From Candidatus Omnitrophota bacterium (GTDB lineage: Bacteria > Omnitrophota > Gorgyraeia > Gygaellales > Profunditerraquicolaceae), in NCBI GenBank assembly GCA_043814315.1, contig JBDRKE010000033.1, positions 10,422 through 74,421 on the forward strand: a stretch of DNA of 64,000 bases, written 5' to 3'. Position numbers and translations under genes: made by a program. How positions within the stretch are numbered: the first letter of the stretch is position 1; every line of letters begins with the position of its first letter. Below, piece by piece: positions 8,393 to 52,325 of this stretch. The notes beneath the pieces were generated by a model. The model was not told the DNA's origin and did no database searches. It saw nothing but the letters and a program-made list of their open reading frames with translations.

Positions 8393-8403
8393 AAGAAAAA
8401 TAG

Positions 8404-8441
8404 CGTCAAAATCCTCTTAGGAGGATTTTGACGTCATTTTT
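8404..8441 (+). terminator. stem-loop with weak T tract between ilvN and ilvC
   Basis: Perfect 13-bp stem cgtcaaaatcctc/gaggattttgacg with loop ttag, followed by tcattttt. Confidence 0.45.
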
Positions 8442-16203: not shown

Positions 16204-19200
16204 TTATCCCTTCCCTAAAAATACCTCCCTTAATTCCTGCGCGCTTCCCATGGATTCTAACACTACCAGGATGTCTCTGAGTGTGGCGTCAGTTGAGCAG
16301 CAGCTTTCTTCCTCTGACCTTAAGATATCCGATATGCAAAAAAGAATTTTATCCCTATCCTGCGTTATGCTCTCTTGAGCGCAGGATGTCTGTATATATT
16401 CCTTTATTCTCTCCGAAGAGGGAGTAATCCCTGAACTTGCCATCCTTGCAATCTGCCGCCACTCCTCATCAAGGTTAGTGCTAACCAAATTCCGAATAGC
16501 CGAAGAACTAATATTTACGCTTAAGTTAGTCATCGCCTGGGTGACGATGGGGAGAGAGCGGAAATCGATTCCTCCAAATCTTTGTTCCATCGCCGAGCTG
16601 GCGGTCTCTGGCTCAAGCGGCGAGCCGGAGACGGGATTATTTCCCAATGGAGGAGAATTTTTGATAGAACCGTCTCCTTTTTCTCTCGCAAGAACCTCCG
16701 TCATCCTCATAAAAAGCAGCATTTTTTCAAGCTGAGAGATTGCTACTTTAAGTTTCTCGCCCTCCAGAGGTTTGCTTTTAAAAATCTCATCAAGTTTATA
16801 TGTAAAAGTGCTGAAAAATACATTTACGGCAAAACGATAATCACTGCAGATACTCTCCGGAGTTCCACTCCTTTGAAATTCCTTTTCTGCTCTATCTAAA
16901 ACTTCCCCTGCCTTCATTCTTTTCATGGTATCCTGTAAGGCATTGACGGCATCCGCGTTCCAGGTTAGTGCCGCCTCGTAAATCTTGATTGCCTGCTGCC
17001 AGAATAAATATGAACCCCGGGTATGATAATAAATATCCCTCATGACCGGATTATCAGCGAAAGGAAGCCTATACAGCCTGGTTTCCTGACGCGAAAGAAG
17101 AGACGGCACATAATACAGGCGATAACTAATAGTTTTCCCGTCTTTTTGAGGGATTCCAATACCAGCCCACTCAAAGCCGTTCTCTAACCAATCCCTAAAA
17201 TCACTGTCACTAAATTCAAGCCCTCCGTCGGGATGATAATGAAAATAAAAAACCGGGGTTGCTTTTTTTTGTTCCACTTCTTTTTGTACGCGCATTTGAT
17301 ATCTCATTGTCCGTGCATGAGAATAATCCGTTATAATCAGATCCCAGTCGTTTTCTAAACTTAATCCTCCCCTTTCCGTTATTATGCGCTGAACAGCTAC
17401 GATATTTTCTGGCAAAGTTATGGGTGCCAGTTTTGAAATTATAGCTACAGCTTCCCCCCAGTCATATTGGTCAGAGAAAATAATAGAATCGCCTTCTTTG
17501 TCCGATATCAGTGTAAGCCTACCTTGAGAATTAACTTCTAAGCGTAAATCATATGACTCTGCTATAGCACGCAAAACCTTTTCTTTAAATCCTCCGATCA
17601 TATACCGTTCGACCAATTTTGTCTCTACATAAAGAATTTTATTTCTTCTGGGTAAAATCAGATCCACCAGTATATCCTTATTGCCCTCTTTTCTAACCAA
17701 GCCCACAGTCGATAATTCAGCATCTCTATATATATCCAAATAGCGCCGATGGAATTCATTCATTTGTTCTATAACTTGAGCTTCCGCATATAACAGCTCA
17801 TCTTCATATATTCCAAAAACCGAAATCAAAGGTCTTGCTGCTGTTGACCCCATTGCCGAAGAGGCTTTAACAGGCCCACTCTCCATCACCGAGCTGGCGG
17901 ACTCTGGCTCAAGCGGCGAGCCGGAGGTTTCCTTGGAAAAATCAGAACCGTCCCTATTTCCTGCAAGATCAATCTCGCTAGTTTCTACATTAACTTGAAC
18001 TGCTATCATTCTTGCCTTATTACGTTTGTCAAAAAGAGTTATCGTTATTGTAGGGGCATAAATCTCCTCTTTCGTGACAGGCTTGACGATGCCACTGTAA
18101 GACAGATAAATAAAATCATCAACGGAAATCCCAAAAAGATCAACAACTTCATGGCGCTTGCTTTCGCTCACCAAAACACCAAAAGCTTCATAAGCTTTTT
18201 TTTCATTTTCTACTGTATCCTTGTTTGGCTCCATGGCTTTAGCAGCTTTATAACTTGCCTCCTGAGCCAAATATTCGTCCATCAAAGGAGCAAGACCTGG
18301 ATTTTCTTTGTGATTTTTTATATGTGTTGCTTCATGAGCTATCATCCGGGCTAACCAAGCATCTCTAGCTTCTTGTGAGGGTAACGCCTCTGAATTATTA
18401 TAGTAGTCATACCCTACAACAATCAATTCCAAGTCCCCAAAAATCGCCATACCCCAGTCATCATTCATGCCCTTCAAAAAGAACAACACCGGCACAAAAG
18501 AAGTACTACTGGAAAGAATATTCTCCGCCATCAAGTAATCATAAGCTTGCCTGACCAGTGTTTCGTTCTGATTAGAAAGATTAATGGATGTCTTTAAATC
18601 CTCTTCAGAAACTGAACCGAGTCTGTTGCTTACCGCATCTTGAAGTTCTTTTAAAGAAAATTCCACGCCTTGTAAAATGCTATCCTTTTTATTTTCACCG
18701 CTTTTCTCATAACTACCTCCACAGCCTAAAAAACCGAATGTCGCCCCTACTGCCAAAGCCTTTATTAATGTCCGTGTCTGTTTAAGAAATTCTCGCCTTG
18801 AAAGATCTGACGATTCTCCCACCGCCGAAGAAGCTATGGACGTCTGTTCTTGGGGGCGCAACTCTACTTTATCTATTTCGCTCGACATGGTTGTAGCACC
18901 CACTTTAATTTCTATAACATTATGATTTAAACTCTGAGGAAGGCGACTTGCTATCGAAGACGATACAGCTCCTGTTTTAGGATTATGCACTACTTCACCT
19001 AATCCAGGCATACGTCCTAAGTCAAATATTTCTCCTCCACTAAAATAACTCCTTATTGTCTGACCATAGGGTGTATAAACTGGCTCCTTGATATTATATT
19101 CTCCATCTTTAAATGACTTCTGGTATTCTTTAAAATAGGGAGTCTTTGACCAGTTTTCTTTGGAGGTAAGGTTAGTTAAGTCTTTTCTATCTATGAGATG

Positions 19201-19539
19201 GGAATAAAGGCCATCTTTACTGTAGTAGCGTGCCTTAAACCACTGGGCCATAATCAAAGAATAATAAACCTGCCTTAAGGAAGCGTAGCGCTTGGAGGAG
19301 TTTACTTCTTTGGTAAGTTTGGGGATGATGAGCTCGCGGATGAGCTGTGTAGAATATTCGTTCAGGATTTTGGAGCGTTCATCCTTAAACTCATAGTTCC
19401 CTGCACCCTGCACCATCCACCCTGCACCCTGGCCACTCTCCTGTCCCCTCAAATAATCCTGCTCTAACATGACCTTTAAAGTGGCTTTATAAATATAGGC
19501 CGAGTCCGTCGTCTCGCGGATAATGATCTCTCCCGGCAC
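16204..19539 (-). CDS. giant modular secreted protein paralog, main fragment (downstream of in-frame TGA)
   Basis: The first ~170 aa and last ~125 aa align to the 38398-43587 product. Internally it has SRREFLK...FLGC, HEATH, HYHx7SxxD and two 44-nt SGSPLEPE junctions. Confidence 0.75.
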   Translation of the reverse strand: MPGEIIIRETTDSAYIYKATLKVMLEQDYLRGQESGQGAGWMVQGAGNYEFKDERSKILNEYSTQLIRELIIPKLTKEVNSSKRYASLRQVYYSLIMAQWFKARYYSKDGLYSHLIDRKDLTNLTSKENWSKTPYFKEYQKSFKDGEYNIKEPVYTPYGQTIRSYFSGGEIFDLGRMPGLGEVVHNPKTGAVSSSIASRLPQSLNHNVIEIKVGATTMSSEIDKVELRPQEQTSIASSAVGESSDLSRREFLKQTRTLIKALAVGATFGFLGCGGSYEKSGENKKDSILQGVEFSLKELQDAVSNRLGSVSEEDLKTSINLSNQNETLVRQAYDYLMAENILSSSTSFVPVLFFLKGMNDDWGMAIFGDLELIVVGYDYYNNSEALPSQEARDAWLARMIAHEATHIKNHKENPGLAPLMDEYLAQEASYKAAKAMEPNKDTVENEKKAYEAFGVLVSESKRHEVVDLFGISVDDFIYLSYSGIVKPVTKEEIYAPTITITLFDKRNKARMIAVQVNVETSEIDLAGNRDGSDFSKETSGSPLEPESASSVMESGPVKASSAMGSTAARPLISVFGIYEDELLYAEAQVIEQMNEFHRRYLDIYRDAELSTVGLVRKEGNKDILVDLILPRRNKILYVETKLVERYMIGGFKEKVLRAIAESYDLRLEVNSQGRLTLISDKEGDSIIFSDQYDWGEAVAIISKLAPITLPENIVAVQRIITERGGLSLENDWDLIITDYSHARTMRYQMRVQKEVEQKKATPVFYFHYHPDGGLEFSDSDFRDWLENGFEWAGIGIPQKDGKTISYRLYYVPSLLSRQETRLYRLPFADNPVMRDIYYHTRGSYLFWQQAIKIYEAALTWNADAVNALQDTMKRMKAGEVLDRAEKEFQRSGTPESICSDYRFAVNVFFSTFTYKLDEIFKSKPLEGEKLKVAISQLEKMLLFMRMTEVLAREKGDGSIKNSPPLGNNPVSGSPLEPETASSAMEQRFGGIDFRSLPIVTQAMTNLSVNISSSAIRNLVSTNLDEEWRQIARMASSGITPSSERIKEYIQTSCAQESITQDRDKILFCISDILRSEEESCCSTDATLRDILVVLESMGSAQELREVFLGKG

Positions 19540-19542
19540 AAT

Positions 19543-20088
19543 TCAGGGCCGGGTGAGAGTGGGAATGGTTATATTCTCATAGCCGTAGATTTCCTCTGCC
19601 TTTTTATAGAGTTTATTCCAGTATTCTTTTCCTTCTGCGGTTTCAGGTGAAGTGAACTTGGCGGTGTCTTTCTTGAGTTGCAGGTCGGTTTCCAGCATGA
19701 TCCTGCCGACATCCGTCCGTTCCAAGAGAGGGTCTATGATATTATCAGGAGAATCAGGCCGTAAGTTCACCCAGAAGAAGTCGTTGGGCAGAGTGAGGCC
19801 GATAAGGAAATAGTTTAGGAGCGTCTTGGTTGTATCCTCAATTTCCCGGGGCTGGGGGTTCTTGAGGCTGCCTTTGTCTAGAAAAAATTGGAAGCTGTTA
19901 TTGAGATTATCGTATTGAAGGTACCTTAAATGCAGGGGGCGAAAGGTGTCCGGAACTAAGGAATTATGCAGTGCTGCTAAGTGGCCGGCAATATTCAACT
20001 GGCCTGCAACCTGGGCAAAGCCGGATTGCTGGAAGATGAGCAGAAGGCACAATAATAGAGATAATAATTTTGTTATTTTCCCTGACAT
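19543..20088 (-). CDS. giant modular secreted protein paralog, N-terminal fragment (signal peptide + conserved domain), ends at TGA replacing conserved Trp
   Basis: 181 aa colinear with residues 1-187 of the 38398 product. ...LTRP-TGA-IVPGEIIIRE here corresponds to ...LTRPWIVPGEIIIRE in the paralog. Confidence 0.75.
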   Translation of the reverse strand: MSGKITKLLSLLLCLLLIFQQSGFAQVAGQLNIAGHLAALHNSLVPDTFRPLHLRYLQYDNLNNSFQFFLDKGSLKNPQPREIEDTTKTLLNYFLIGLTLPNDFFWVNLRPDSPDNIIDPLLERTDVGRIMLETDLQLKKDTAKFTSPETAEGKEYWNKLYKKAEEIYGYENITIPTLTRP

Positions 20089-20135
20089 TTATTGCGGTTT
20101 TAAGAGATTTTGGTTTCTCAGCCTTTATTAATAAT

Positions 20136-20164
20136 AGTATACACATTTAGGTAAGGGGATTCAA
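20136..20164 (-). promoter_or_regulatory. candidate sigma70 promoter for the minus-strand giant paralog
   Basis: On the minus strand: TTGAAT, 17-nt spacer, TATACT, about 45 nt upstream of ATG 20088. Confidence 0.4.
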
Positions 20165-20396
20165 TATAAAATAGGAAACCTAAGAAAGGGTTTTCTCTTA
20201 AGAAGACAAGGAAAGCTAACTACGCGAAATAACGCTTGGCGAAATATTATCTACGCCTTATACTTACTATTGAAGAATGACTGGCGGCTTAGAGTTTTAG
20301 ATTTTTATCCAGTCAAGATTATTCTTGTAACTCATTGTTTAGCAAGCTATTTCAAGACCCGATCTTGAAAATTTTAAAAAACGTTACCTTATTCAA

Positions 20397-32937: not shown

Positions 32938-34125
32938 ATGAAAGATTTCTTAGAGGGTTCTCGGGCGGTTGCCGAGACCGTGAAACTTTGTAAGCCGGGG
33001 GTGATTTCCGCTTACCCCATTACGCCCCAGACGCACATCGTCGAAGAATTAGCCAAGATGGTGGCTAACGGCGAATTAGGCTCTTCGTTTGTCAATGTGG
33101 AGAGCGAGCATTCCGCTGCCTCCGTGGTCCTGGGAGGGGTAGCTGCAGGCGTGCGTTCTTACACGGCGACCAGCTCACAAGGCCTGCTTTATATGGGAGA
33201 GGTGATTTTTAATATCGCGGGGATGCGCCTGCCGCTCGTTCTGACTTGTGCCAACAGGGCTATCTCAGCCCCCATCAATATTTGGAACGACCAGCAGGAT
33301 TCCGTATCGCTGCGGGATGCCGGATGGATACAGTTGTATGCGGAGAATATCCAGGAAACAGTTGACCTTCATCTTATGGCCTATCGCATCAGCGAAGACA
33401 AGTCTATGATGCTTCCGGTGATGGTGTGCATGGATGGTTTCATTTTAACGCATGGCATGGAGGCCGTGGATATTCCTGAACAGGATAAGGCGGATAAGTT
33501 CCTGCCTGCTTACAAACCTCTCTATAAGCTTGATCCTGCCGCGCCTTTGACTATGGGGTTGCTGGCAGACCCTGATTATTACATGGAAACACGTTTTGCC
33601 ATTCAGGAGACCCTGAAGGCAGCCTTAAATTTTATCCCTAAGGTCAGCCAGGAATTTAAAAGCGTTTTCGGCCGGGATTATAAAGATTGTTTAATAGAAG
33701 AGTATGGCACCAGGGATGCCCAGAAGGTGATTGTGGCCATGGGTTCTGTCTGCGGCACCATCAAGGAAGTGGTGGACCAGATGCGGCAGAAAGGTAAAAA
33801 GGTCGGTTTGTTAAAGATTGTCTCTTACCGGCCGTTTCCTTACGCGCAGGTTTATCAGGCACTCAAGAATGTGCCGCAGGTTGCGGTATTAGATAAAGCC
33901 GTTTCTTTGGGGGCATGGCCTCCTTTAGCCGTGGAGATCAAGGCCGCCTTCTGCGGAAAAAAGAAGGCGCCTAAGGCCGTTGGTTCTTTTGTCGCAGGTT
34001 TAGGCGGCAGGGATATAACGCTTGATTCGATAAGGGAGATATTCAGAAGGCTCACGCAAAAAGAAATCAACTGGGAGTTTATCGATTTAAAACCCGAGTT
34101 GCTCAGGGAGGAATATGGAGAATAG
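32938..34125 (+). CDS. porA: 2-oxoacid:ferredoxin oxidoreductase alpha subunit
   Basis: 395 aa with GSRAVAE...AYPITPQT...ESEHSA motifs. Confidence 0.9.
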   Translation: MKDFLEGSRAVAETVKLCKPGVISAYPITPQTHIVEELAKMVANGELGSSFVNVESEHSAASVVLGGVAAGVRSYTATSSQGLLYMGEVIFNIAGMRLPLVLTCANRAISAPINIWNDQQDSVSLRDAGWIQLYAENIQETVDLHLMAYRISEDKSMMLPVMVCMDGFILTHGMEAVDIPEQDKADKFLPAYKPLYKLDPAAPLTMGLLADPDYYMETRFAIQETLKAALNFIPKVSQEFKSVFGRDYKDCLIEEYGTRDAQKVIVAMGSVCGTIKEVVDQMRQKGKKVGLLKIVSYRPFPYAQVYQALKNVPQVAVLDKAVSLGAWPPLAVEIKAAFCGKKKAPKAVGSFVAGLGGRDITLDSIREIFRRLTQKEINWEFIDLKPELLREEYGE

Positions 34126-35611
34126 AGTTTTGTTTAAACCGGGCCATACCGCATGTGCGGGTTGCGGCCAGTCTTTGGCTGCCCGTTTAGTCTTAGAAGC
34201 AGCCGGCCCCAATACCATCGTGGTGAATAATACGGGCTGCCTGGAGGTGTTTTCCACAAAATATCCGGAATCCGCATGGGGCGTGCCCTGGATTCACTCT
34301 CTGTTCGAGAATGCCGCGGCTGTGGCTTCGGGAGTTGAATCCGCCTTGATTTATTTAGGTAAGAAAGAGGGGATTAATGTTATTGCCCAGGCAGGTGACG
34401 GTGGTACTGCGGACATAGGCCTGCAGGCTTTATCCGGCATGTTGGAGCGGGGGCATGATATTTTATACGTCTGTTACGACAATGAGGCCTATATGAATTG
34501 TTTAAGCATATCCTCTTCAGTCATGACAAAAGAGGGTCTTAAAAGAATAACAGAAATAAAAATTGGTGACGAAATTTGTGCTTTTGACCAAAATAACCAT
34601 CAGATGGTCATAAAGAAATGTAGTGGAGTATTTGATAATGGTAGAAAAGAAGTATTTGAGCTCAAGACCCTCTATTATTCTATAAAGGCAACAGCCAATC
34701 ATCCCTTTTTGGTTTTACAGAGAAATGAAAAAGGAGGGCATAGCAGTTTAGTTTGGAAGATGCTTAAGGATGTGGATATAGCGACTGGTGATAGAGTTGT
34801 AACATTAAAAAGCATGAATGACGATACTCCTTTTCGTTTCCTAGACTTGCATAAAAGAATGTCCGTCAGTAAAATATCCACTTTTCTTCCACAGGAACAA
34901 AAAGAGAAATTTGTTGGAGGTTTGATGCTGGCTGAAGAAGAGTTCTTGCCAGATAATAAATTTTTCCAGACTGAAGAAGTATTAAGCATAAAGTCAAAAG
35001 GAGTGGAGCCAACTTTAGATTTAAGGATAGAAGAGGAGCATAATTTTATTGCCGATGGCATCGTCGTTCATAACACGGGCATTCAACGCAGCGGCCTCAC
35101 CCCTTTTCATTCCGCGACAACGACAAGCCCCTTTGGCCGTCAATCCTTTGGAAACATCCGGCCTAAAAAACCTATGCCTGAAATTGCCCTGGCGCACGGC
35201 ATCCCTTATGTGGCCACGACCTCTGCGGGCTTCATGCAGGATTTGCAGAGAAAAGTCAAAAAGGCCCTTTCTATCAAAGGCCCCAAATACCTGCAGATTC
35301 ATGTCCCTTGTCCTTTGGGCTGGAGGCATGAGCCAAATCTAACGCTGGCCGTGGCAAAATGTGCGGTTGAGACGGGCCTTTATCCTTTAATTGAATATGA
35401 AGGAGGCGCCCTTGTGTCCCGTCGGCAGATAACACCGAAACCCGTTCAGGAGTATCTGAAAGTTCAGGGCAGATTCAAGCACCTCTTGAATGCGCCCGAG
35501 GAGATCAGGAAGATCCAGGAAATAGCGGATCATAATATCGAGAAGTACGGACTAAGTGAAAAATCACAAATTCCAAATTCCAAATCACAAACAAATCCTA
35601 ATACCCAATGA
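34115..35611 (+). CDS. porB: 2-oxoacid:ferredoxin oxidoreductase beta subunit (TPP-binding), interrupted by an intein
   Basis: CAGCG, GDGG and YDNEAYMN|TGIQRSG extein motifs. 498 aa, versus about 300 aa once the insert is removed. Confidence 0.9.
   Translation: MENRVLFKPGHTACAGCGQSLAARLVLEAAGPNTIVVNNTGCLEVFSTKYPESAWGVPWIHSLFENAAAVASGVESALIYLGKKEGINVIAQAGDGGTADIGLQALSGMLERGHDILYVCYDNEAYMNCLSISSSVMTKEGLKRITEIKIGDEICAFDQNNHQMVIKKCSGVFDNGRKEVFELKTLYYSIKATANHPFLVLQRNEKGGHSSLVWKMLKDVDIATGDRVVTLKSMNDDTPFRFLDLHKRMSVSKISTFLPQEQKEKFVGGLMLAEEEFLPDNKFFQTEEVLSIKSKGVEPTLDLRIEEEHNFIADGIVVHNTGIQRSGLTPFHSATTTSPFGRQSFGNIRPKKPMPEIALAHGIPYVATTSAGFMQDLQRKVKKALSIKGPKYLQIHVPCPLGWRHEPNLTLAVAKCAVETGLYPLIEYEGGALVSRRQITPKPVQEYLKVQGRFKHLLNAPEEIRKIQEIADHNIEKYGLSEKSQIPNSKSQTNPNTQ
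34499..35074 (+). mobile_element. mini-intein (192 aa) in PorB
   Basis: It starts CLSISSSVMT, has block B TANHPF, and ends EHNFIADGIVVHN followed by +1 Thr. The flanks join to the conserved YDNEAYMN-TGIQRSG. The insert is AT-richer than the exteins. Confidence 0.88.
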
Positions 35612-36515: not shown

Positions 36516-37901
36516 TCAGAAGGCTTTTCTTTTTAATTCAGCTACGAATTGAGCAAAGAATATCTGCTTCTTCTGCAAGAGTAATGTCTGGCTGAATTCT
36601 TCCTTTTCGCTCTCAAATTTTTTCTCGTCAATCGGGGTCCTGCTTTTAGTCTTAATGATAAAAAAGCCCATGGGCAAGCTCAGAATCTCACTGAATTCTT
36701 CCTCTTTCAAGGGTTTTGCCGCCATCCAGAGTTGATCCGAAGCCCCTATCCCTTCGATGTAGCTTCCGTATTTGAAGTTATCGGTAGAGCCGCTTTTGAG
36801 CCCGCATTCCTTAGCGGTTTCTTCAAAATTGGCCTGATTTTTTAACTTCTCCAGGCACTCTTGCGCCTTGTTTCTGGCTATTTTTGTGGATTCATCTTTA
36901 ATGTATAATTCTTTGGCTTTTTCCTTGGCCTCCCTAAAATCAGGAATAAAGGTTTCCTTTCTCTCCTTGAGTTCTAATATATAATAGTTTTTGTCCATGC
37001 GAATGGGAGGCGAGAACTGCCCTACTTTTAACTTTGAAATAAGGGAGAGGATCTCGGTTGACCAGCCGATGCCGGGGATAGGGTCGGTTTGAGCGAACAT
37101 CCCCGTTTCTTTTACGGAAGTTCCTAAATCCTGCGCTATTTTTTGCAGGCCCTCTTTCTTCTGAAGGCGCTTTGCGGCCTGGTTTATTTTTTCTTCCGTT
37201 TCAACCTCTATATAGTCCATGTTAAAGGAAACCGGCTGTTTGAAGCGCAAGGGGTTTTTCGTAAAATAATCTTTACTATTATCTTCTGTGGCGGATACGT
37301 CTTGGGCGAAATCTTCCGGCTTTGCGGCTATATAAGAAATACTGACTTCTTCATTGCTTCTTTCGTACTCTTTTTTTACCTCTTCGTCGGTAACGCTGAT
37401 TTTATCCGTCACTTGTTTATAGAGTTTAGAGAGGATGATATTCTGGCGGGCCTGTTCTTCAAAAACACGGGGTTGCGTGCGAAAGACATACTGGAGGATT
37501 TCCTCATAGGTTTTTTTATCGAATTTCCCGTTGTGCTGAAAAAAAGGCAAGTTTTGTAAGAATTTCACGACCTCTTTGTCACCGGCGGTGATTTTACGCC
37601 TTTTGGCCTCGTAGAGCAGAAGAAGCCTTTCCCAGGCCGAAGCCTCGAGATTAAGCTGTTGCTCTACCTCGGGAAACTTATCTCCTAATTGCATGATGAC
37701 CGAGGCCTTTTCCGCTTGATAGGCATCCCGGAATTCTGAAAAAGAAACCTTTTTGCCGAACATCCTGCCTGCGAACGCTTCTTCTTCTTTGTTGCGTATG
37801 AGGCTGCCTGAGCCCCAGAGCACAAACGCGGGCACGATGATGGCGGCGAGGCCAATCCATATTTTCTTCGCGGTTTTCCTGTTTCGCAATACTTTAAGCA
37901 T
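36516..37901 (-). CDS. PpiD/SurA-like periplasmic chaperone (parvulin-type PPIase family)
   Basis: N-terminal membrane anchor, SurA-N-like region and a degenerate parvulin segment. Confidence 0.6.
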   Translation of the reverse strand: MLKVLRNRKTAKKIWIGLAAIIVPAFVLWGSGSLIRNKEEEAFAGRMFGKKVSFSEFRDAYQAEKASVIMQLGDKFPEVEQQLNLEASAWERLLLLYEAKRRKITAGDKEVVKFLQNLPFFQHNGKFDKKTYEEILQYVFRTQPRVFEEQARQNIILSKLYKQVTDKISVTDEEVKKEYERSNEEVSISYIAAKPEDFAQDVSATEDNSKDYFTKNPLRFKQPVSFNMDYIEVETEEKINQAAKRLQKKEGLQKIAQDLGTSVKETGMFAQTDPIPGIGWSTEILSLISKLKVGQFSPPIRMDKNYYILELKERKETFIPDFREAKEKAKELYIKDESTKIARNKAQECLEKLKNQANFEETAKECGLKSGSTDNFKYGSYIEGIGASDQLWMAAKPLKEEEFSEILSLPMGFFIIKTKSRTPIDEKKFESEKEEFSQTLLLQKKQIFFAQFVAELKRKAF

Positions 37902-37978
37902 ATACCCACTCCTTTTTAAGCCATTATAGTTTAAAATTTGAATAATGCAATTATTTTCATAGCCACGTTACGCTATAT

Positions 37979-38107
37979 GCACAGATGATCACTGATGAAG
38001 AGATACAGATGATCGCAGATATCCCTCTAAAGCGGATTTTATCTGAGATCATCTGCCGGTTTTAAAGGAAGGTTGTACGCGGATCTTTATCTGTGGCCAT
38101 CTGTGTT
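37979..38107. repeat. word-repeat long hairpin (cacagat / atctgtg words)
   Basis: cacagatgatcactgatgaagagatacagatgatcgcagat faces atctgagatcatctgcc...atctttatctgtggccatctgtg. It uses the same words as 51521-51614. Confidence 0.65.
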
Positions 38108-38141
38108 TATTGTATATTCTAGTAGTTAATGCAAATTTTCC

Positions 38142-38170
38142 TTGCAAATTGCTTAATTATATGTTATATT
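38142..38170 (+). promoter_or_regulatory. candidate sigma70 promoter with flanking GCAAATT/AAATTGC repeats
   Basis: TTGCAA (38142-38147), 17-nt spacer, TATATT (38165-38170). tgcaaatt occurs at ~38130 and ~38143, and its inverted copy aaattgca at ~38177. Confidence 0.5.
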
Positions 38171-38253
38171 TACTTAAATTGCACATTGTAGACAATTAGG
38201 AATCCGGTGGTCCTGAGGTAAGTGGAGGAACTCAGGCTTGCCACGAAAGTTAG

Positions 38254-38287
38254 TCCGGATTGACTTTGGGTCAGTCCGGATTTTTTT
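38254..38287 (+). terminator. intrinsic terminator inside the leader of the giant gene (or end of a ~110-nt sRNA)
   Basis: tccggattgac / gtcagtccgga forms an 11-bp stem with one G-U pair and loop tttgg, followed by T7. It lies 110 nt upstream of ATG 38398. Confidence 0.65.
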
Positions 38288-38397
38288 ATTTGCCCTCGCC
38301 CAACGTAGTTGGTTTTGGCAAATAACCCTACGAAGCCACACTATTTATTACTGATTGAATGGCGAAGTAGGGTAAAAGGTATAGGGAGGACAGAAAA

Positions 38398-41300
38398 ATG
38401 TTACGCAAAACAACCTCATTAGTTTTAACTCTTGGTTTATTCTTCCAACAATTAAGCTTTGCGCAGGTAGCTGTGGACCTTAATATCGCCGGGCACCTTT
38501 CCAGGATGGCTTCTGGGATGGCCGTAGAAAAATTCAGGCCTGTGCACCTGCGCTATTTTTCCTACGACAGCCTAAGTGATAATTTCAAGGTGCTCCTGGA
38601 TAAAGGAGACCTCAAGCAGTTGGATCCTCTTAAGGCCGAAGAATCAGCCAGGCAGCTTTTGAGTTACTTTTTGATAGGGGTCACTATGCCGGATGAGGCG
38701 TTTTGGGTGAACCTTAGGCCTGATTCAGAGAACCAGATTATAGACCCTTACCTGGAAAAGACAGATGTAGGTAAGATTATGCTTAAGGCGGACCTTCAGC
38801 TTAAGAAGGATACCGCAGCCCTCACTTCTCCCAAGACTCCCGAAGGCAGGGAATATTGGAACCGGCTCTATAAAAAAGCAGAGGAGCTCTATGGTTATGA
38901 GGCGGTTAATATACCTGCCTTAACCAGGCCCTGGATAGTCCCCGGTGAAATCATCATCAGGGAATCCCAGGAGAGCGCCTATATCTATAAGGCGACTCTT
39001 AAGGTGATGCTGGAGCAGGATTATTTAAAGGGGCAGGGGAGTGGCCAGGGTGCAGGGTGGATGGTACAGGGTGCAGGGAATTATGAGTTTAAGGATGAGC
39101 GCTCCAGGATTCTGAATGAATACTCAACCCAGCTTGTACGCGAACTCATCGTTCCGAAACTCACCAAAGAGGTCAATAGCGCCAAGCGCTATGCCGCAGT
39201 CAGGCAGGTGTATTATTCACTCATCCTTTCCCGCTGGTTCAAGCAGCGTTTTTCCGGAAAAAGCGGCACCTATGCTTCTCTCATCAATACCGAAGACCTC
39301 ACGAACCTGCTTTCCAGGGAACCCTGGTCAAAGACCGATTATTTCAAGCAATACCAGAAGTCATTCGCAGAAGGGGAATATAACATCCAAGAGCCGGTTT
39401 ACACTCCCACAGGCCAAACGATACGGAGTTATTTCAGCGGAGGGATGGCACTGCAAGCTATCAATACAGGTAATCGTTTTACAGTTGAACCTAACCTGGC
39501 CTTGTTTAAAACAGGGTTTCCTTTGCAAGGTGATGCTAAAGGAATTATTAGCGCCGGCTCGCCGGTGACGGAAGCGCAGGCATTAGCGAAAGAGTTTGCT
39601 GAATCAATGGCAGCTAATGACATTATTAATTCTGACCTTAAGGCGCAGGAGGAGGTAATCTCTATCTTGCTGCCCCTCATAGAAGAGTTCTCCCTTCAGT
39701 TCGGGCGCGTTTCTGTTACAGAGGAAGCATTTGATTATTATAGATGGATTCAAGGTCTTCAGGCTGACCCTAAATATGTGATGGAATTACAAAATCCGGC
39801 ATTTTATTCAAAGAAAGCCAGGGAGTTTGTCAATGAAAGGTTTGATAATATCCCCACTGTTGTTGAGAATAAATTATCAAGGTTGGCCCTTGAGGAACCG
39901 GAGCTGGTCCAATTCAAAGATGAGTTAATATTTTGGCTGCAGCAGGTTATAAGTGACGGCGTGCGCAGCGACCTTCCTGATGATTCCAAAAAAGTGAGGA
40001 TATCGGCAATATTGAGCCTACCTAACTATATCGAAGCTTCCCCCCAGAAATACCCTCCTGAGATGAATTCCCTAATAAATTCTTTTCTGGATACGCATAG
40101 TGTGGAGAAGATAAGGGCAATTGAGTCAACAAACAATAAGGAATTGGGCGAGATACTAAACATACTTACATCCAGCGTGCTTGATACCAGCCTCGTAGCT
40201 TCCGCCGGATCGCCGGTGGAATCGGAAGCTGCTTTAGTGCAACAGATAAAGGACCGGTTGTGGCGTGTAATTAAGGAAACCGAGGATTCGCTACTGTTTA
40301 ATGGTACAAAATATTTGCCTAAAAAATTAAATCAAGCTGCAAGTTTGAAAGAATTAGGCAATTTTCGTGGTGAGTTTTTTGGAGCAATCGATGAACTAAT
40401 AGCATGGAATAAAGAGAATTCCACGGTATTAAAATCTTCTGAATACAACATTGGCAGGTTGAATCAGCTAAAGAACTCTATAGTTGATATCTTACCCCAA
40501 CTCTTTGCGCAGGAAATAAATAATCTATTTAACGAAAATGTGAAATTTGAGATCTATAAAGGCGAAAGTGACGGCAATTATTATTTTAAAATGTGGGACA
40601 GAATAATAAATCAGCCCAATGTTTCCAGCGCCACAGACGGAGGTTTTTATTCCGGTAAACCCAACCTGCATAGATTGTTTATAGCCCTACTAGAATCCGG
40701 CTTTGCCCTAGATCCTAAAACCAATACGATTACCTTTAGTAACAGCCAGGCAGTCGATGAGATTAAAACCCAGATTAAAGCTCATATGCCTGAATCCGCC
40801 GCCGGCCCTTCGACTCGCTCCGCTCGCTCAGGGTCAGCGCAGCCCGATGAAGACAAAGCCGCCGGCTCGCCGGTTCAAACGGAAACTGAAGATCTGAGAA
40901 AGCTTAAGAACCTTCTTCTTTTGAAGATGGAAGACCTGACGCCTGAACATCGAAAAATCATAGGAGACTCATCTCTTGAATTGCCTTTAGGCGGAACGAC
41001 TTCATTAAAAGAATTTAATGAATCCCTTATTAAGTCTATTAAAGAAGTCGACGGCTTGATAACACGAAGCGAAGAGATTATCAAACATTATAAAGATATC
41101 CTCTCCTACAGGTGGTTAGAAAACTCAGCGAAAGATAATTTAGAGGCGTGGGGTTCATTAAAAAATATCTTAGAAGAGATATCAAAAGAATTATCAAAAT
41201 ACGCATCAATCTATCCGGCCATATTCGTGAAGGGCTTTTTAACAACTGGCTTAATGGATCAGGCCCAGGCGCCGGACGAAGGTGCCGCCGGCTCGCCGGT

Positions 41301-43587
41301 GGTTTACCCCTGGGGCAGGCAATTGTCGCCTTTGCCCAGATCTGGTGAAAACATCGTGAGCGCATTAAAAAGGTTGATGGAAAATCCCGTAACCAAAATG
41401 ATTACATTGAAAGTAGAGAATAGTTTGTATCAGAGAATAGAGCTCAACATAGAAAGCATCACAAGCGAAAAAGATAAGAGCACAATAGCGGTTTCGCCGC
41501 GCGATTTAAATGAAATATTGAACAACCTTAAAGCATCTGGTGAATTTGAGTTATCACAAGTAGGAAAAGGTTATGATACCTATATAACGGCAACTCGCAA
41601 GGCCGCCTACCTTTTGCGCTTTGTTCTTGAAAGACTCGAAAGAGTAAAGAGAGCAGAAGAAATCTTGAAAAATGAGTTGAAGAACTTTAATCATGATACG
41701 GGCTTGTCACGTTTTCCGTGGCGAAGTATATCTTACTTATCGGGATATGAAATCAATATGAATTATAATGATAAAATCAGAGAAGCAAGGGTTTATTTGC
41801 TGGGTAAAGGAGGAGAGGAGTTGTTTCAACTTGTTTATCCTGAAACAAAATTGGACGAGTTGGATAGAAAAGTAATCAAGCTGGATTTAACAGATGCAGT
41901 CAATGCAGAGCTTTGGGCCTTAAAGCAGTTAGAATCAGAATTGGAAGAAGCGAAGGCTTTGCAGGGGCGCGCAACGACCCTCGCGACGCAGGCTTCTGCC
42001 GCCGGCTCGCCGGTGAGGGAGAGTAACCATAACCATTTCACCGTGTCGTATGAGGTCACTAATGGTCAGTTTTCAGATAAGGATTTACGAGAAGATATCC
42101 AAAACTTGAAAGAACATCTTCGTAGTCAAGATACAGGCACGATAACATTTGCAAGAGAATGGATCGAAGGGGTTGTTCATCTTGAGGGGGGTCTATTCGC
42201 TCCTTATAATGCCGACGCAGAACTAGGTTTGTTTATTCAATTCCTGGCTTCTTTTATCCCTGGAACAAATATCCATAGCGCTTTAGGCGACAGTGATAAT
42301 TTAGACCTGGTTCGTAGCTTAAAATTAAGCCTTGTTCATAAAGAAGGCAAGGCGCCCAAAGGGGCAACTGTCGCTATCTCAGCTCTTAGCAAACAGATCG
42401 AGCAAGGAGTGGTAACCTTTAGCTTTAATGGCGCCGACTATTTGACGCAGGCAAAGGACAAATATATCTTTGATATAAAAGATATTCCTACTATGGTTGA
42501 AGAAGAATTAACTGCTAACGGCTCTTATGTTACATTAAAAAATCTGTTAGTTACGCATCTGCAGAAGGTTGTAGCATTGCATCAAGAAGGCCGAGCAACC
42601 GCTCAGAATGTTATATCTGCCATAAAAGCTCTTGCGGAATATATTCGCCTAGTAAGAAGCACGGGCATTGATTTAGGGGCGTGGAATAAAGTTACCGCTG
42701 GTCAAATTAACTGGCCTTTAAATCAAGTGCCGGAATTGGATTTTATTCTGTCTGAGTTAGTTAGCAGAATGCGGGGAAACTATAATGATAGAGGGCAAGA
42801 GCTGGACAAAATATTAAATTCACTTGAGAATGTTATTAAGGAAGCTGCCGCCGGCTCGCCGGTGCAGGAGTCAAACGCTATGATTATGGAACGGGCATTA
42901 AATGTTTTTCAAGACCCTCAAAAATTAAGTGAATGTTATGTAGATAATCAAATAATGGGAAAGGGTGAGGGGAAAGAAAGAAGAATACGTTACCTCTCAG
43001 GTATTGCTGAAGGTTATAAGATTTCTTTGCGCTTTGATGCAGACCACAACCACACCATGATTACATTAGTGAATCCTGAAAGTAGAATTGTAATAGCGCG
43101 ACCTTCTGTCAGTGACGCTGTTTATTATTTCGAAGTCGATAGAGACGTTATACTGTATCGATTAATTAACGAGATGAAAGATAAACTGGGCATTTCTTCT
43201 TCGCCGGTACAGGCGGTGTCTACAGATATTGCAGATGAAGGGGTAGGAGGAATTGATTTTCGTGCCCTGCCTATGACCATCCAGCCCATGGGGAGCTTCC
43301 AGGGGTTGAATTTCAGCTTACCGAAGTTAAGCCAGGCAGAGCTGGAGAGGATAAATGTGGATACGGAGCTGCGCCAGATAGAGCAAATGGTAGACTCCGG
43401 TATTACGCCTTCCGGAGCAAGGATTAAAGAGCTTATCGCTGCCTGCGCGCAAAAAGGCAAAATTAGCGCTTACGCCGACCATTTATTGCTTTGCCTCGTA
43501 GATATATGTAAACTGCAGGAGGAGGAGGCGAGCGAGACTTCGGCGGAGTTGAGGGAAGCGCTGGTTATAGTTGATGCGGTGAGCTAG
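38398..43587 (+). CDS. giant modular secreted protein (1729 aa), family unrecognised
   Basis: Signal peptide (LVLTLGLFFQQLSFAQV), then a ~350-aa conserved N-domain, six unrelated modules separated by AAGSPV junctions, and a conserved ~125-aa C-domain (GGIDFRALP...SGITPS...). SD gggagg. Confidence 0.85.
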   Translation: MLRKTTSLVLTLGLFFQQLSFAQVAVDLNIAGHLSRMASGMAVEKFRPVHLRYFSYDSLSDNFKVLLDKGDLKQLDPLKAEESARQLLSYFLIGVTMPDEAFWVNLRPDSENQIIDPYLEKTDVGKIMLKADLQLKKDTAALTSPKTPEGREYWNRLYKKAEELYGYEAVNIPALTRPWIVPGEIIIRESQESAYIYKATLKVMLEQDYLKGQGSGQGAGWMVQGAGNYEFKDERSRILNEYSTQLVRELIVPKLTKEVNSAKRYAAVRQVYYSLILSRWFKQRFSGKSGTYASLINTEDLTNLLSREPWSKTDYFKQYQKSFAEGEYNIQEPVYTPTGQTIRSYFSGGMALQAINTGNRFTVEPNLALFKTGFPLQGDAKGIISAGSPVTEAQALAKEFAESMAANDIINSDLKAQEEVISILLPLIEEFSLQFGRVSVTEEAFDYYRWIQGLQADPKYVMELQNPAFYSKKAREFVNERFDNIPTVVENKLSRLALEEPELVQFKDELIFWLQQVISDGVRSDLPDDSKKVRISAILSLPNYIEASPQKYPPEMNSLINSFLDTHSVEKIRAIESTNNKELGEILNILTSSVLDTSLVASAGSPVESEAALVQQIKDRLWRVIKETEDSLLFNGTKYLPKKLNQAASLKELGNFRGEFFGAIDELIAWNKENSTVLKSSEYNIGRLNQLKNSIVDILPQLFAQEINNLFNENVKFEIYKGESDGNYYFKMWDRIINQPNVSSATDGGFYSGKPNLHRLFIALLESGFALDPKTNTITFSNSQAVDEIKTQIKAHMPESAAGPSTRSARSGSAQPDEDKAAGSPVQTETEDLRKLKNLLLLKMEDLTPEHRKIIGDSSLELPLGGTTSLKEFNESLIKSIKEVDGLITRSEEIIKHYKDILSYRWLENSAKDNLEAWGSLKNILEEISKELSKYASIYPAIFVKGFLTTGLMDQAQAPDEGAAGSPVVYPWGRQLSPLPRSGENIVSALKRLMENPVTKMITLKVENSLYQRIELNIESITSEKDKSTIAVSPRDLNEILNNLKASGEFELSQVGKGYDTYITATRKAAYLLRFVLERLERVKRAEEILKNELKNFNHDTGLSRFPWRSISYLSGYEINMNYNDKIREARVYLLGKGGEELFQLVYPETKLDELDRKVIKLDLTDAVNAELWALKQLESELEEAKALQGRATTLATQASAAGSPVRESNHNHFTVSYEVTNGQFSDKDLREDIQNLKEHLRSQDTGTITFAREWIEGVVHLEGGLFAPYNADAELGLFIQFLASFIPGTNIHSALGDSDNLDLVRSLKLSLVHKEGKAPKGATVAISALSKQIEQGVVTFSFNGADYLTQAKDKYIFDIKDIPTMVEEELTANGSYVTLKNLLVTHLQKVVALHQEGRATAQNVISAIKALAEYIRLVRSTGIDLGAWNKVTAGQINWPLNQVPELDFILSELVSRMRGNYNDRGQELDKILNSLENVIKEAAAGSPVQESNAMIMERALNVFQDPQKLSECYVDNQIMGKGEGKERRIRYLSGIAEGYKISLRFDADHNHTMITLVNPESRIVIARPSVSDAVYYFEVDRDVILYRLINEMKDKLGISSSPVQAVSTDIADEGVGGIDFRALPMTIQPMGSFQGLNFSLPKLSQAELERINVDTELRQIEQMVDSGITPSGARIKELIAACAQKGKISAYADHLLLCLVDICKLQEEEASETSAELREALVIVDAVS
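39550..43212 (+). repeat. interspersed in-frame junction repeat GCCGCCGGCTCGCCGGTG (7 sites)
   Basis: Exact 18/18 at 41284, 41998 and 42847; 17/18 at 40858; 16/18 at 39550 and 40201; core tcgccggt at ~43201. Confidence 0.9.
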
Positions 43588-43626
43588 CGCAAAAATTGAA
43601 TCGTTAAGGACAAAGATTAGAAAAAA

Positions 43627-43656
43627 GGGCAGACCTCTCAGGGTCTGCCCTTTTTT
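43627..43656 (+). terminator. intrinsic terminator after the giant gene
   Basis: gggcagacc / ggtctgccc forms a 9-bp stem followed by T6, with an A-run upstream. Confidence 0.8.
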
Positions 43657-51519: not shown

Positions 51520-51520
51520 T

Positions 51521-51614
51521 GTAGCACAGATTAGCACAGATGAAAAGCGCACAAGATGAACACAGATAAAATCTGTGATTATCTGTTTCATTCAATCTGC
51601 GAGCATCTGTGTTC
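51521..51614. repeat. word-repeat long hairpin (cacagat / atctgtg words)
   Basis: gcacagattagcacagatgaaaagcgcacaagatgaacacagat faces atctgtgattatctgtttcattcaatctgcgagcatctgtg. Confidence 0.7.
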
Positions 51615-51632: not shown

Positions 51633-52325
51633 ATGGAAGAAATATTTTTGGATGTAGAACTCAGGCAGGATGGTGGAAGGGCAAAGGTTAAAGATTTAAG
51701 AGGCCATGGGTTTGTCCCGGCGGTTGTCTATGCCGAAGGCAAAGAATCCATTCCTGTTAAGGTCTCTCATAGCGCACTAATAAAACTGATTCATCAGCAT
51801 AGAATCGAGGGCGTATTGATCAATGTTAAGGTCAAAGACGATAAAAAGGATAGCGTCCGGTCGTGCGTGATAAAAGAAATTCAGTATGAGCCGGTTCACG
51901 GCGAGATTCTCCATGTTGACTTTAATGAGATTTCCCTGACGAAGGCCATCAAGGTTAACGTGCCTATCGCAGTCAAAGGCGAGTCGATTGGCGTAAAGCA
52001 GGAGGGGGGATCTCTGGAGCATATACTTTGGGAAGTCGAGGTGGAGTGTTTACCCACCCAGATTCCCAAGGATATCCAGGTGGATGTGAGCCTGTTGAAG
52101 CTTGGGGATTCCATCCACGTAAAAGATTTAAATATTCCTTCCGGCATCAAAATCTTAAATGACCCCACCGCCATTGTGCTTTCTGTGGCGGCTCCCATGA
52201 AAGAAGAAGTGGCAGCACCCGTTGAGGGAGAGGAGACGCAGGAACCGGAGGTCATAAAAGAAAAGAAAGAAGCCCCCGCTGCTGAGGGCGAAGAGGCTGA
52301 AGAAAAAGAAAAGAAGGAGAAATAA
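51633..52325 (+). CDS. rplY: 50S ribosomal protein L25/general stress protein Ctc
   Basis: R...GK...LR..G.VPAVVYG-like N-terminus, two-domain Ctc form, acidic/lysine-rich tail. Confidence 0.88.
   Translation: MEEIFLDVELRQDGGRAKVKDLRGHGFVPAVVYAEGKESIPVKVSHSALIKLIHQHRIEGVLINVKVKDDKKDSVRSCVIKEIQYEPVHGEILHVDFNEISLTKAIKVNVPIAVKGESIGVKQEGGSLEHILWEVEVECLPTQIPKDIQVDVSLLKLGDSIHVKDLNIPSGIKILNDPTAIVLSVAAPMKEEVAAPVEGEETQEPEVIKEKKEAPAAEGEEAEEKEKKEK

Follow-up and report, generated by a model that had tools for sequence, protein, structure and literature searches.

Gene control by a promoter-proximal intrinsic terminator is a mechanism already known from several kinds of leader. In transcriptional riboswitch platforms, such as the pbuE adenine ON switch, a structured leader lies close to the promoter with the terminator directly before the ribosome binding site (RBS), and a 5' segment able to pair with the terminator 5' arm offers a second fold, which can compete only while the RNA is still being made, as is usual for kinetically controlled switches. 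The leaders of the BglG/LicT ribonucleic antiterminator (RAT), ANTAR and LoaP systems carry a short conserved hairpin or motif beside or overlapping the terminator, many leaders answer to one regulator, and those of LoaP type act on very long transcription units as well. In pyrBI-type attenuation, translation of a short open reading frame (ORF) covers the terminator, whilst in cryIIIA of Bacillus thuringiensis the STAB-SD, a GGAGG resembling a Shine-Dalgarno (SD) sequence, lies far upstream of the RBS in the 5' untranslated region (UTR) of a large gene of secreted or toxin type. We describe here a leader RNA with likenesses to each of these systems, located in a 64,000-nt stretch of a Candidatus Omnitrophota contig (JBDRKE010000033.1; the whole stretch is referred to as the window) ahead of a giant gene encoding 1729 amino acids. 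Comparative sequence analysis indicates that the leader is not a chance structure but a real, conserved RNA element. It is an uncatalogued, Omnitrophota-specific family, and we consider it moderately probable that it attenuates transcription in cis and is read by a trans-acting factor common to its copies.

The leader occupies the intergenic region between a divergent gene for a SurA-like protein (36516-37901, minus strand) and the giant gene. A sequence-only reading of the window had listed a near-consensus promoter (TTGCAA-17-TATATT), a hairpin (cctgag...ctcagg), a strong intrinsic terminator with seven T residues, and an SD followed by the ATG at 38398, and each of these was recovered here (Table 1). 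The promoter additionally carries an extended -10 TG, the transcription start would lie near 38177, the hairpin proved to be the upper part of a larger conserved and covarying hairpin (P2), and the SD is GGGAGG. The terminator, for which an 11-bp stem had been given, has 14 pairs (six of them G-C), a 3-nt loop and a T7 tract, with a calculated stability of -20.3 kcal/mol, and the conserved GGGUC falls at 38268-38272. Judged from its sequence, the site presents a G+C-rich stem-loop with a U-tract directly after it, as expected of an intrinsic terminator. A scan of the whole 64 kb for hairpins followed by T-runs returned just three sites at or below -19 kcal/mol, namely this one and two bidirectional gene-end terminators, at 8400-8437 and behind the giant gene. 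With strong terminators both in its leader and after its stop codon, the giant gene would constitute a monocistronic unit framed by the two. The 231-nt leader (38170-38400) as a whole also folds more stably than its dinucleotide shuffles (z = -3.3, with 0 of 200 as stable).

One suggestion of the sequence-only reading, that GCAAATT/AAATTGC repeats around the promoter form an operator, was not borne out. Nine copies of GCAAATT were counted in the window, where 22.8 would be expected. The two near the promoter are repeated in the same direction at a distance of 13 nt, and one of them coincides with the -35 region, whose family consensus is CTTGAAATT. The supposed inverted partner, AAATTGC, mirrors GCAAATT and is not its reverse complement, and the repeats are not conserved at the other loci or family promoters.

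The recurrence of the leader was assessed in 108 loci encoding the N-terminal domain (N domain) of the giant protein, 28 from species-representative genomes and 80 from metagenomes. BLASTN searches with the window leader retrieved matches just upstream of a family gene in eight loci (e.g. L003, E 1.6e-9). When sorted by 5' architecture, 38 loci carried the window type of leader (variant A) and 24 a second type (variant B), whilst 36 had a different architecture (class C), eight had other arrangements such as tandem family genes, and two were truncated. A leader of either variant was hence found co-oriented with and upstream of the gene at 62 of the 108 loci, all of them from Omnitrophota-type metagenome-assembled genomes (MAGs) or metagenomes. 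Covariance models for variant A (R1) and variant B (R2), run over approximately 0.85 Mb of these loci and the window, gave 33 and 24 significant plus-strand matches, respectively, and one weak minus-strand R2 match, which was discarded. All matches lay on the strand of the gene and nearly all were 19-160 nt before its start codon, the two outliers being L046 (~250 nt) and L015 (~420 nt); none occurred elsewhere in the ~0.85 Mb or in the rest of the window. A further model (R3), derived from 27 leaders of variant A with the window left out, was searched against both strands of the 64 kb at E<=10 and returned a single match, 38195-38288 (64.1 bits, E 3.5e-13). The two variants constitute one family, since a model built from variant B alone detects variant A leaders with E-values down to 6e-8. 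Both occur together in one MAG, JAPLLX01 (B at L001 and L002, A at L010). Two relatives of the protein on viral contigs had no leader detectable by R1 (run alone, E<=1) or by R2 (run with 31 other loci, E<=0.01).

Variant A leaders consist, from 5' to 3', of an AAUCCGG segment that is conserved in most of the aligned members, P2 with a (U)GGAGG loop, the block YUGCCACG, a linker of about 10 nt, and a terminator with arms GCCGGAUUGAC / GUCAAUUCCGGC and an A-rich loop ending in GG(GUC), followed by the U-tract. Variant B leaders begin with P2 (5' arm GAAAGCGYUUUC, GGAGG loop), which a linker of 12-35 nt separates from a terminator with arms AACCNNAAUGCC / GGCUUNNGGUU and a large loop containing (C)ACGG, an A-rich tract and GGGUC, again with a U-tract. 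In the 55 distinct leaders used for counts of promoters, spacers and motifs, GGAGG was present in 47, GCCAC in 46, GGGUC in 44 and a run of at least four T residues in 54. The setting of the blocks differs between the variants: UGCCACG forms the 3' strand of the lower P2 stem in A and lies in an arm and the loop of the terminator in B, where the terminator loop also holds GGGUC.

Covariation analysis of 33 variant A sequences gave a score of 0.351 against a shuffle mean of 0.178, a value reached by none of 500 shuffles, with slid controls at or below 0.155; double-sided changes were evident in P2 pairs (e.g. GC14/AU8/CG5 and AU15/GC10). For the 23 distinct variant B sequences, 89% of cells were paired and the score was 0.379 (shuffles 0.178; slid controls at or below 0.123), with changes on both sides in 17 of the 23 pairs; the terminator stem (AU11/GC9, GC14/CG7) and an apical helix of three pairs (GCC/GGC) were among these. 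The terminator stem is conserved and covaries in both variants, and RNAalifold, run independently, predicts the upper P2 stem and the terminator. As covariation and RNAalifold agree, P2 and the terminator stem are features of the RNA, and the comparison that the sequence-only reading had proposed, a covariation analysis with regions upstream of orthologs, came out in its favour. An all-against-all comparison of columns for pseudoknots in variant A singled out the P2 pairs alone, the remainder resembling subfamily signal.

No catalogued RNA family corresponds to the element. Rfam 15 (4227 models, including all riboswitch classes, T-box, PyrR, ykkC, c-di-GMP, preQ1, ZTP and thiS) matched the whole window only at a tRNA-Gln (49154) when gathering thresholds were applied, and gave no match in 15 homologous loci. 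With permissive filters at E<=10, the region 37900-38500 yielded just snoRNA and lncRNA noise of 12-19 bits, against thresholds of 45-97, in agreement with the sequence-only reading, which could assign the leader to no riboswitch class. A full-text literature search found no paper on regulatory RNAs (riboswitch, RNA motif) of Omnitrophota/Omnitrophica or on this protein family. The leader is a good candidate for a new Rfam family.

Several described motifs were also compared directly. Unlike the RAT, ANTAR and LoaP systems, the leaders contain no RAT-like sequence, their P2 loops are of 5-13 nt with GGAGG and are not ANTAR hexaloops, and no regulator gene was found nearby. An ANTAR-regulated leader requires two tandem hexaloop hairpins (A1, G4), the second overlapping the terminator; here there is one hairpin, and no second hexaloop hairpin was seen in the leader alignments. 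Of the RfaH ops sequence GGCGGTAGnnTG, only the CGGTAG core occurs, in a subset of variant A; the window has CGGTGG in its place, the L012 group has CGTATG, and sub-variant A2 and B have no counterpart. CsrA-type GGA sites were set aside by eye, variant A having CACGGU instead of GGA. The likeness of GGGUCGAUUCC to a tRNA T-arm/B-box lies within the terminator stem, where ARAGORN finds no tRNA, and kissing of the P2 loop with the terminator 3' arm or with a downstream CCUC is, by eye, not conserved.

Sigma-70-like sites (TTGAAA/TTGACA with TATACT/TATATT) were located no more than 70 nt upstream of 52 of the 55 distinct leaders, and promoter-like sites between the terminator and the ATG in only four, the spacer between these having a median of 63 nt and a minimum of 19 nt. 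In the window, the consensus scan found no promoter-like site in the spacer (38288-38397). Because all 55 leaders are co-oriented with and adjacent to the gene, with a promoter upstream and rarely one in the spacer, the gene would be transcribed through the terminator. The sequence-only reading had offered two options, an independent small RNA (sRNA) of ~110 nt or attenuation/antitermination, and these comparative data favour the second; co-orientation, adjacency and promoter placement all speak against the first. As an sRNA gene, the terminated transcript would itself be the functional product, for instance as a protein sponge or as a base-pairing sRNA displaying GGAGG, and the giant gene would be transcribed separately. 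In favour of this, the element comes with a promoter and a strong terminator of its own, its conserved hairpin exposes a loop of GGAGG/GGA type, and many copies per genome would supply a high dose; a terminated leader can also act in trans. An independent sRNA gene should, however, be free in position and orientation and be followed by a gene with its own promoter. What was found instead is that all distinct copies sit directly upstream of a single gene family and that spacers can be as short as 19-40 nt. An independent sRNA gene is therefore very unlikely, although the terminated ~110-nt product may exist and have a function of its own.

The attenuation mechanism that we favour starts from what the comparison shows: that the element and both its helices are conserved, that it keeps one position and orientation relative to the gene, and where its promoter lies. 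Transcription would start at the conserved promoter and the nascent RNA would form P2, exposing the SD-like GGAGG loop. Without intervention the strong terminator would then form and the ~110-nt RNA would be released, so that the default state would be off and the 5.2-kb gene, having no promoter of its own, would be expressed solely upon read-through by the polymerase. The extent of read-through would be set by a trans-acting factor common to all copies in a genome, which would read the conserved blocks (the P2 GGAGG loop, UGCCACG and GGGUC) and, in variant A, favour an alternative fold in which AAUCC(GG) pairs with CCGGAUU of the terminator 5' arm. Since the blocks change context between A and B, a shared reader of motifs, whether protein or ribosome, is preferred to a single ligand pocket, and the coexistence of both variants in JAPLLX01 points to a single trans-acting input common to the two. 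The effector is more likely to be an RNA-binding protein or the translation machinery than a small-molecule ligand; that it is a protein is a tentative proposal.

The putative antiterminator of variant A, AAUCC(GG) with (CC)GGAUU, is part of the minimum free energy (MFE) structure in 19 of 33 nascent transcripts (ending before the 3' arm). The complementarity has no consistent counterpart in A2 or B. Together with P2 and a helix of three pairs (GGU/GCC), the alternative pairing often makes up a compact three-way junction. For the window copy, the forced alternative fold of the nascent RNA has -21.3 kcal/mol against an MFE of -22.6, and is thus 1.3 above it, whilst in the full leader the terminator fold is favoured over it by 13 kcal/mol (-37.8 against -24.7). 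We regard this pairing as plausible but unproven.

Such a junction next to a terminator would also suit a riboswitch of a new class, for a metabolite or second messenger, in which P1 (AAUCC/GGAUU), P2 and a short P3 (GGU/GCC) form the aptamer. Binding of the ligand could hold the terminator 5' arm and allow read-through or, by a second route, the P2 loop could dock onto the terminator loop and stabilise termination. A covarying stem accompanied by invariant loop and junction nucleotides (GGAGG, GCCAC, GGGUC) beside an intrinsic terminator, the junction fold predicted for many variant A nascent transcripts, and the restriction of the element to one lineage with no match to a known class would all be in keeping with this, and variable linkers between sub-domains occur in real riboswitches such as ZTP. 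However, P1 and P3 show no covariation, whereas P2 is strongly supported, and the blocks are permuted between the variants, B having UGCCACG and GGGUC in the terminator loop and P2 set apart by the variable linker, an odd arrangement for one binding pocket. The targets, moreover, are paralogous secreted proteins with unrelated cargo domains, and no biosynthesis or transport pathway hints at a ligand. In contrast to the known riboswitch platforms, there is also no covarying alternative pairing, and taken together these points make a riboswitch unlikely.

Several observations weigh against the attenuation mechanism as proposed here. The antiterminator pairing (AAUCC/GGAUU with GGU/GCC) scored 0.086 for covariation against 0.111 for shuffles, 466 of 500 of which reached its value, and 70.8% of its cells were paired compared with 69.8% for shuffles. 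It lies outside the nascent MFE structure of the window copy itself, the AAUCCGG segment is missing in A2 and B, and variant B offers, by eye, no more than a weak alternative hairpin (ACGGUU/AACCG), which is not found consistently. At E<=0.01, the window copy was not detected by the B-only model. No candidate regulator was found among the neighbouring genes, which are housekeeping genes only. The large conserved terminator loops, especially those of variant B, could instead be the target of a factor that stabilises the terminator, making the leader an off switch. Finally, actual termination and regulated read-through are predictions from sequence, and the default-off direction and the kind of effector are proposals.

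A ribosome could also act on the leader directly. In such an attenuator, the GGAGG of the P2 loop would be a true SD and NUG-CCA-CGN the start of a mini-ORF, and the translating ribosome would cover the terminator 5' arm or run through the terminator, prompt translation blocking the hairpin as in pyrBI-type coupling; as no stable antiterminator is needed there, this would suit variant B. In 27 of 33 variant A leaders GGAGG precedes a UUG, CUG, AUG or GUG by 8-13 nt, and the resulting ORF either stops no more than ~10 nt away from the terminator stem, as MPR-stop in 11 leaders, or continues into that stem or beyond it. The window copy reads UUG-CCA-CGA at the UUGCCACG block and continues for 38 codons through the terminator. 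An AUG or UUG lies inside the terminator 5' arm in 15 of 22 variant B leaders, 14 of these 15 reading through the hairpin. The octamer AUGCCACGG (MPRK) also opens several leaderless class C genes with A-rich 5' UTRs devoid of an SD, and three of four differences among MPRNKIIKPN-type ORFs, read by eye, are synonymous. Against translation stands the wobble base of CCA, which is invariant in all 42 leaders with the CCACRN block and points to a constraint at the RNA level; the U or C before UG likewise follows from base pairing within the lower stem of P2. Thirteen of 55 leaders (6 of 33 A, 7 of 22 B) lack the start codon or motif, GGAGG lies 16-46 nt from the AUG in variant B with no nearer SD, the peptide is conserved no further than MPR(K/N), and GGGUC is read in different frames. 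ORF length is itself uninformative, as the region is stop-free in all three frames in one variant B leader (L031). The pyrBI-type explanation is, on these grounds, quite unlikely. In one locus (L056:2840-2935) the reading frame of the leader AUG continues across the terminator into the main ORF, hence gene callers may annotate an N-terminally extended protein.

The length of the target genes, unusual at 3-9 kb, raises the further possibility that the terminator is constitutively bypassed. P2 and UGCCACG could form a site of the nut/put/EAR or LoaP type that renders the polymerase resistant to termination, and a hairpin with a short single-stranded box between promoter and terminator is indeed the nut/put layout; or the GGAGG loop could act as a STAB-SD-like 5' stabiliser that binds 30S subunits and protects the mRNA, for which it may be relevant that the loop is kept even where it is unable to serve a nearby start codon, in variant B. 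The likeness to cryIIIA is limited in that GGAGG here is displayed by a hairpin loop, with an intrinsic terminator behind it. No boxA/boxB, put or EAR match was obtained from Rfam, the ops-like CGGTAG is confined to a subset of leaders, and no gene for a NusG paralog is nearby. A terminator that is always bypassed, moreover, has no reason to be conserved by covariation in 55 leaders, and processive antitermination or mRNA protection is an extremely improbable explanation.

A broader and somewhat unlikely interpretation is that the leader represents an orphan class of regulatory RNA through which one signal controls a whole regulon of giant secreted 'cargo' proteins. Two forms of it can be imagined, which share this low probability: a riboswitch for a small molecule or second messenger derived from a host or from contact, and an SD-mimic hairpin through which the ribosome licenses very long genes. 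The regulon would comprise at least several paralogs per genome and more than 1000 homologs in databases and, if the interpretation is true, the Omnitrophota, largely uncultured and possibly host-dependent, would thereby gain their first described regulatory RNA.

The giant protein of the window carries a signal peptide and no Pfam or NCBIfam domain; with six linker-like A(A/S)GSPV repeats, its architecture looks modular or polyprotein-like. More than 1000 relatives were found in databases, essentially all labelled Candidatus Omnitrophota/Omnitrophica, and these share only the first ~350-380 residues, at about 50-73% identity among the best 120 matches; more than 100 homologs, with N domains 60-74% identical, start at the equivalent position. 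This N domain of ~350 residues contains the motifs FWVNLRPD and RPWIVPGE, belongs to no Pfam or NCBIfam family and has no sequence match in the PDB, and its AlphaFold model (pLDDT 72) gave no Foldseek match in the PDB. The window also encodes a paralog that shares, in addition, the C-terminal ~130 residues (GGIDFRxLP...). The middles of the homologs are highly variable and many hold whole enzymes, including PGK, enolase, GAPDH, TPI, phosphomannomutase, PGM, PPDK, transaldolase and guanylate kinase, among others. In one locus (L014:2250-2501), a family gene follows directly behind another without a leader, indicating that tandem or operon arrangements exist.

The window paralog (16204-20088, minus strand), whose relatives the sequence-only reading had named for comparison, does not have such a leader. 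Its upstream region (~20110-20230, minus strand) is of the class C type, with a AGAAAACCCTTTCT box, GTATACT and AAGGCTGAGAAACC. The paralog is interrupted by an in-frame TGA at 19543-19545, exactly at the invariant Trp codon of the family (TRP*IVPGE in place of TRPWIVPGE), which could be a nonsense mutation or pseudogene, a sequencing error, or a TGA read as Trp. Class C as a whole (36 of 108 loci: L017, L019-L025, L071-L075, L086, L087, L091-L104 and L107) is characterised by a terminator-less, A-rich leader, often without an SD, and its genes often begin with AUGCCACGG. A palindromic box, GAAAGCGCTTTC, is located ~35 nt upstream of a CTTGAAA -35, followed by a TATAGCATACTT-type -10 and the conserved 5'-UTR motif GGCUGAUAAAC; the box looks like a transcription-factor operator of the family regulon. 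The same GAAAGCGYTTTC box as is found ahead of class C promoters is transcribed in variant B (L001, L031-L034, L038 and others) as the 5' arm of P2, where it is under RNA-level selection because it covaries with the P2 3' arm; in L067 it lies just 5' of P2. This box may have a double function as DNA and RNA, or may be a trace of how the leader evolved.

The coordinates of the leader and the features around it are given in Table 1.

Table 1. Features of the leader region of the giant gene and its surroundings, in window coordinates.
Feature	Coordinates	Strand	Details	Basis
Sigma-70-like promoter	38142-38170	+	-35 TTGCAA 38142-38147; 17-nt spacer; extended -10 TG 38162-38163; -10 TATATT 38165-38170	Consensus scan
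Conserved leader RNA core, variant A	38195-38288	+	From 5' conserved segment to U-tract	Covariance model, BLASTN
5' conserved segment AAUCCGG, candidate antiterminator strand	38201-38207	+	Complement of CCGGAUU 38255-38261 (terminator 5' arm)
P2 hairpin	38207-38244	+	Lower stem GUGGU/GCCAC; upper stem CCUGAG 38212-38217 / CUCAGG 38231-38236	MFE folds, covariation
P2 loop, SD-like GGAGG	38224-38228	+	GGAGG within 13-nt loop	MFE folds
Conserved block UUGCCACG	38238-38245	+	3' strand of lower P2 stem in the window	Alignments, motif counts
Putative intrinsic terminator	38252-38287	+	5' arm 38252-38265; loop 38266-38268; 3' arm 38269-38282; U-tract to 38287
Window-specific stem-loop UUAUUUGCC/GGCAAAUAA	38286-38325	+	Outside conserved element	Inverted repeat, fold
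Window-specific stem-loop ACCCUACGAAGCCA/UGGCGAAGUAGGGU	38325-38373	+	Outside conserved element	Inverted repeat, fold
RBS GGGAGG	38384-38389	+	N8, then ATG 38398 of the 1729-aa gene (38398-43587)	Sequence, ORF list
Bidirectional hairpin terminator	43626-43651	both	39 nt past the stop codon of the giant gene; -21.3 and -20.2 kcal/mol	Hairpin and T-run scan

The two stem-loops between the terminator and the RBS, which the sequence-only reading had counted as part of the structured leader, do exist as folds and inverted repeats, but are missing from the homologous leaders, which have different, unrelated palindromes or nothing at that position, and hence they do not belong to the element; neither is followed by a T-run. 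The spacers of L006, L009, L013 and L016 contain lineage-specific G+C-rich palindromes (e.g. GGGGACAC...GTGTCCCC and GGGACTGTCCCCGCAGGGGACTGTCCC) in the same position as the two window stem-loops and unrelated to them in sequence, which may be insertions resembling repetitive extragenic palindromic (REP) elements. Tandem repeats of ~25 nt (CAGTAGTCATCCCGCGGTTTGAT) were also found inserted upstream of the family gene in L015 (665-1086), where they sit between the leader terminator and the gene and widen the spacer to 420 nt, and in L027 (~150-300), where no leader was detected.

Two intergenic regions of the window (37975-38111 and 51520-51612) contain clusters of direct and inverted repeats of the (C)ACAGATGATC type. 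In the first, four copies stand in the stretch from the SurA-like gene to the leader promoter; the second, which precedes the ORF at 51633, holds a comparable array. These repeats, which are not conserved in the homologous leaders, may represent a regulatory site in several copies or an element of REP type. The genes surrounding the leader and the giant gene are ordinary housekeeping genes. One neighbouring cluster encodes a 2-oxoacid:ferredoxin oxidoreductase, whose thiamine pyrophosphate (TPP)-binding subunit (34115-35611) carries an intein (Intein_splicing and Hint inside TPP_enzyme_C).

Omnitrophota are widespread and almost entirely uncultured, and to our knowledge nothing is known about gene regulation in this phylum. 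From the comparative sequence data, the leader marks, and probably gates, a very large, lineage-specific family of giant proteins bearing signal peptides, in which variable, enzyme-bearing middles stand between conserved N- and C-terminal domains, the N domain being without a recognised fold match (PDB, Foldseek). Its SD-like conserved hairpin loop is unusual, and as an RNA of ~95 nt with two covariation-supported helices and three conserved motifs the leader provides a testable handle on this family. The presence of a putative default-off terminator before 62 of the 108 sampled members implies that the expression of these proteins would be coordinated and conditional.

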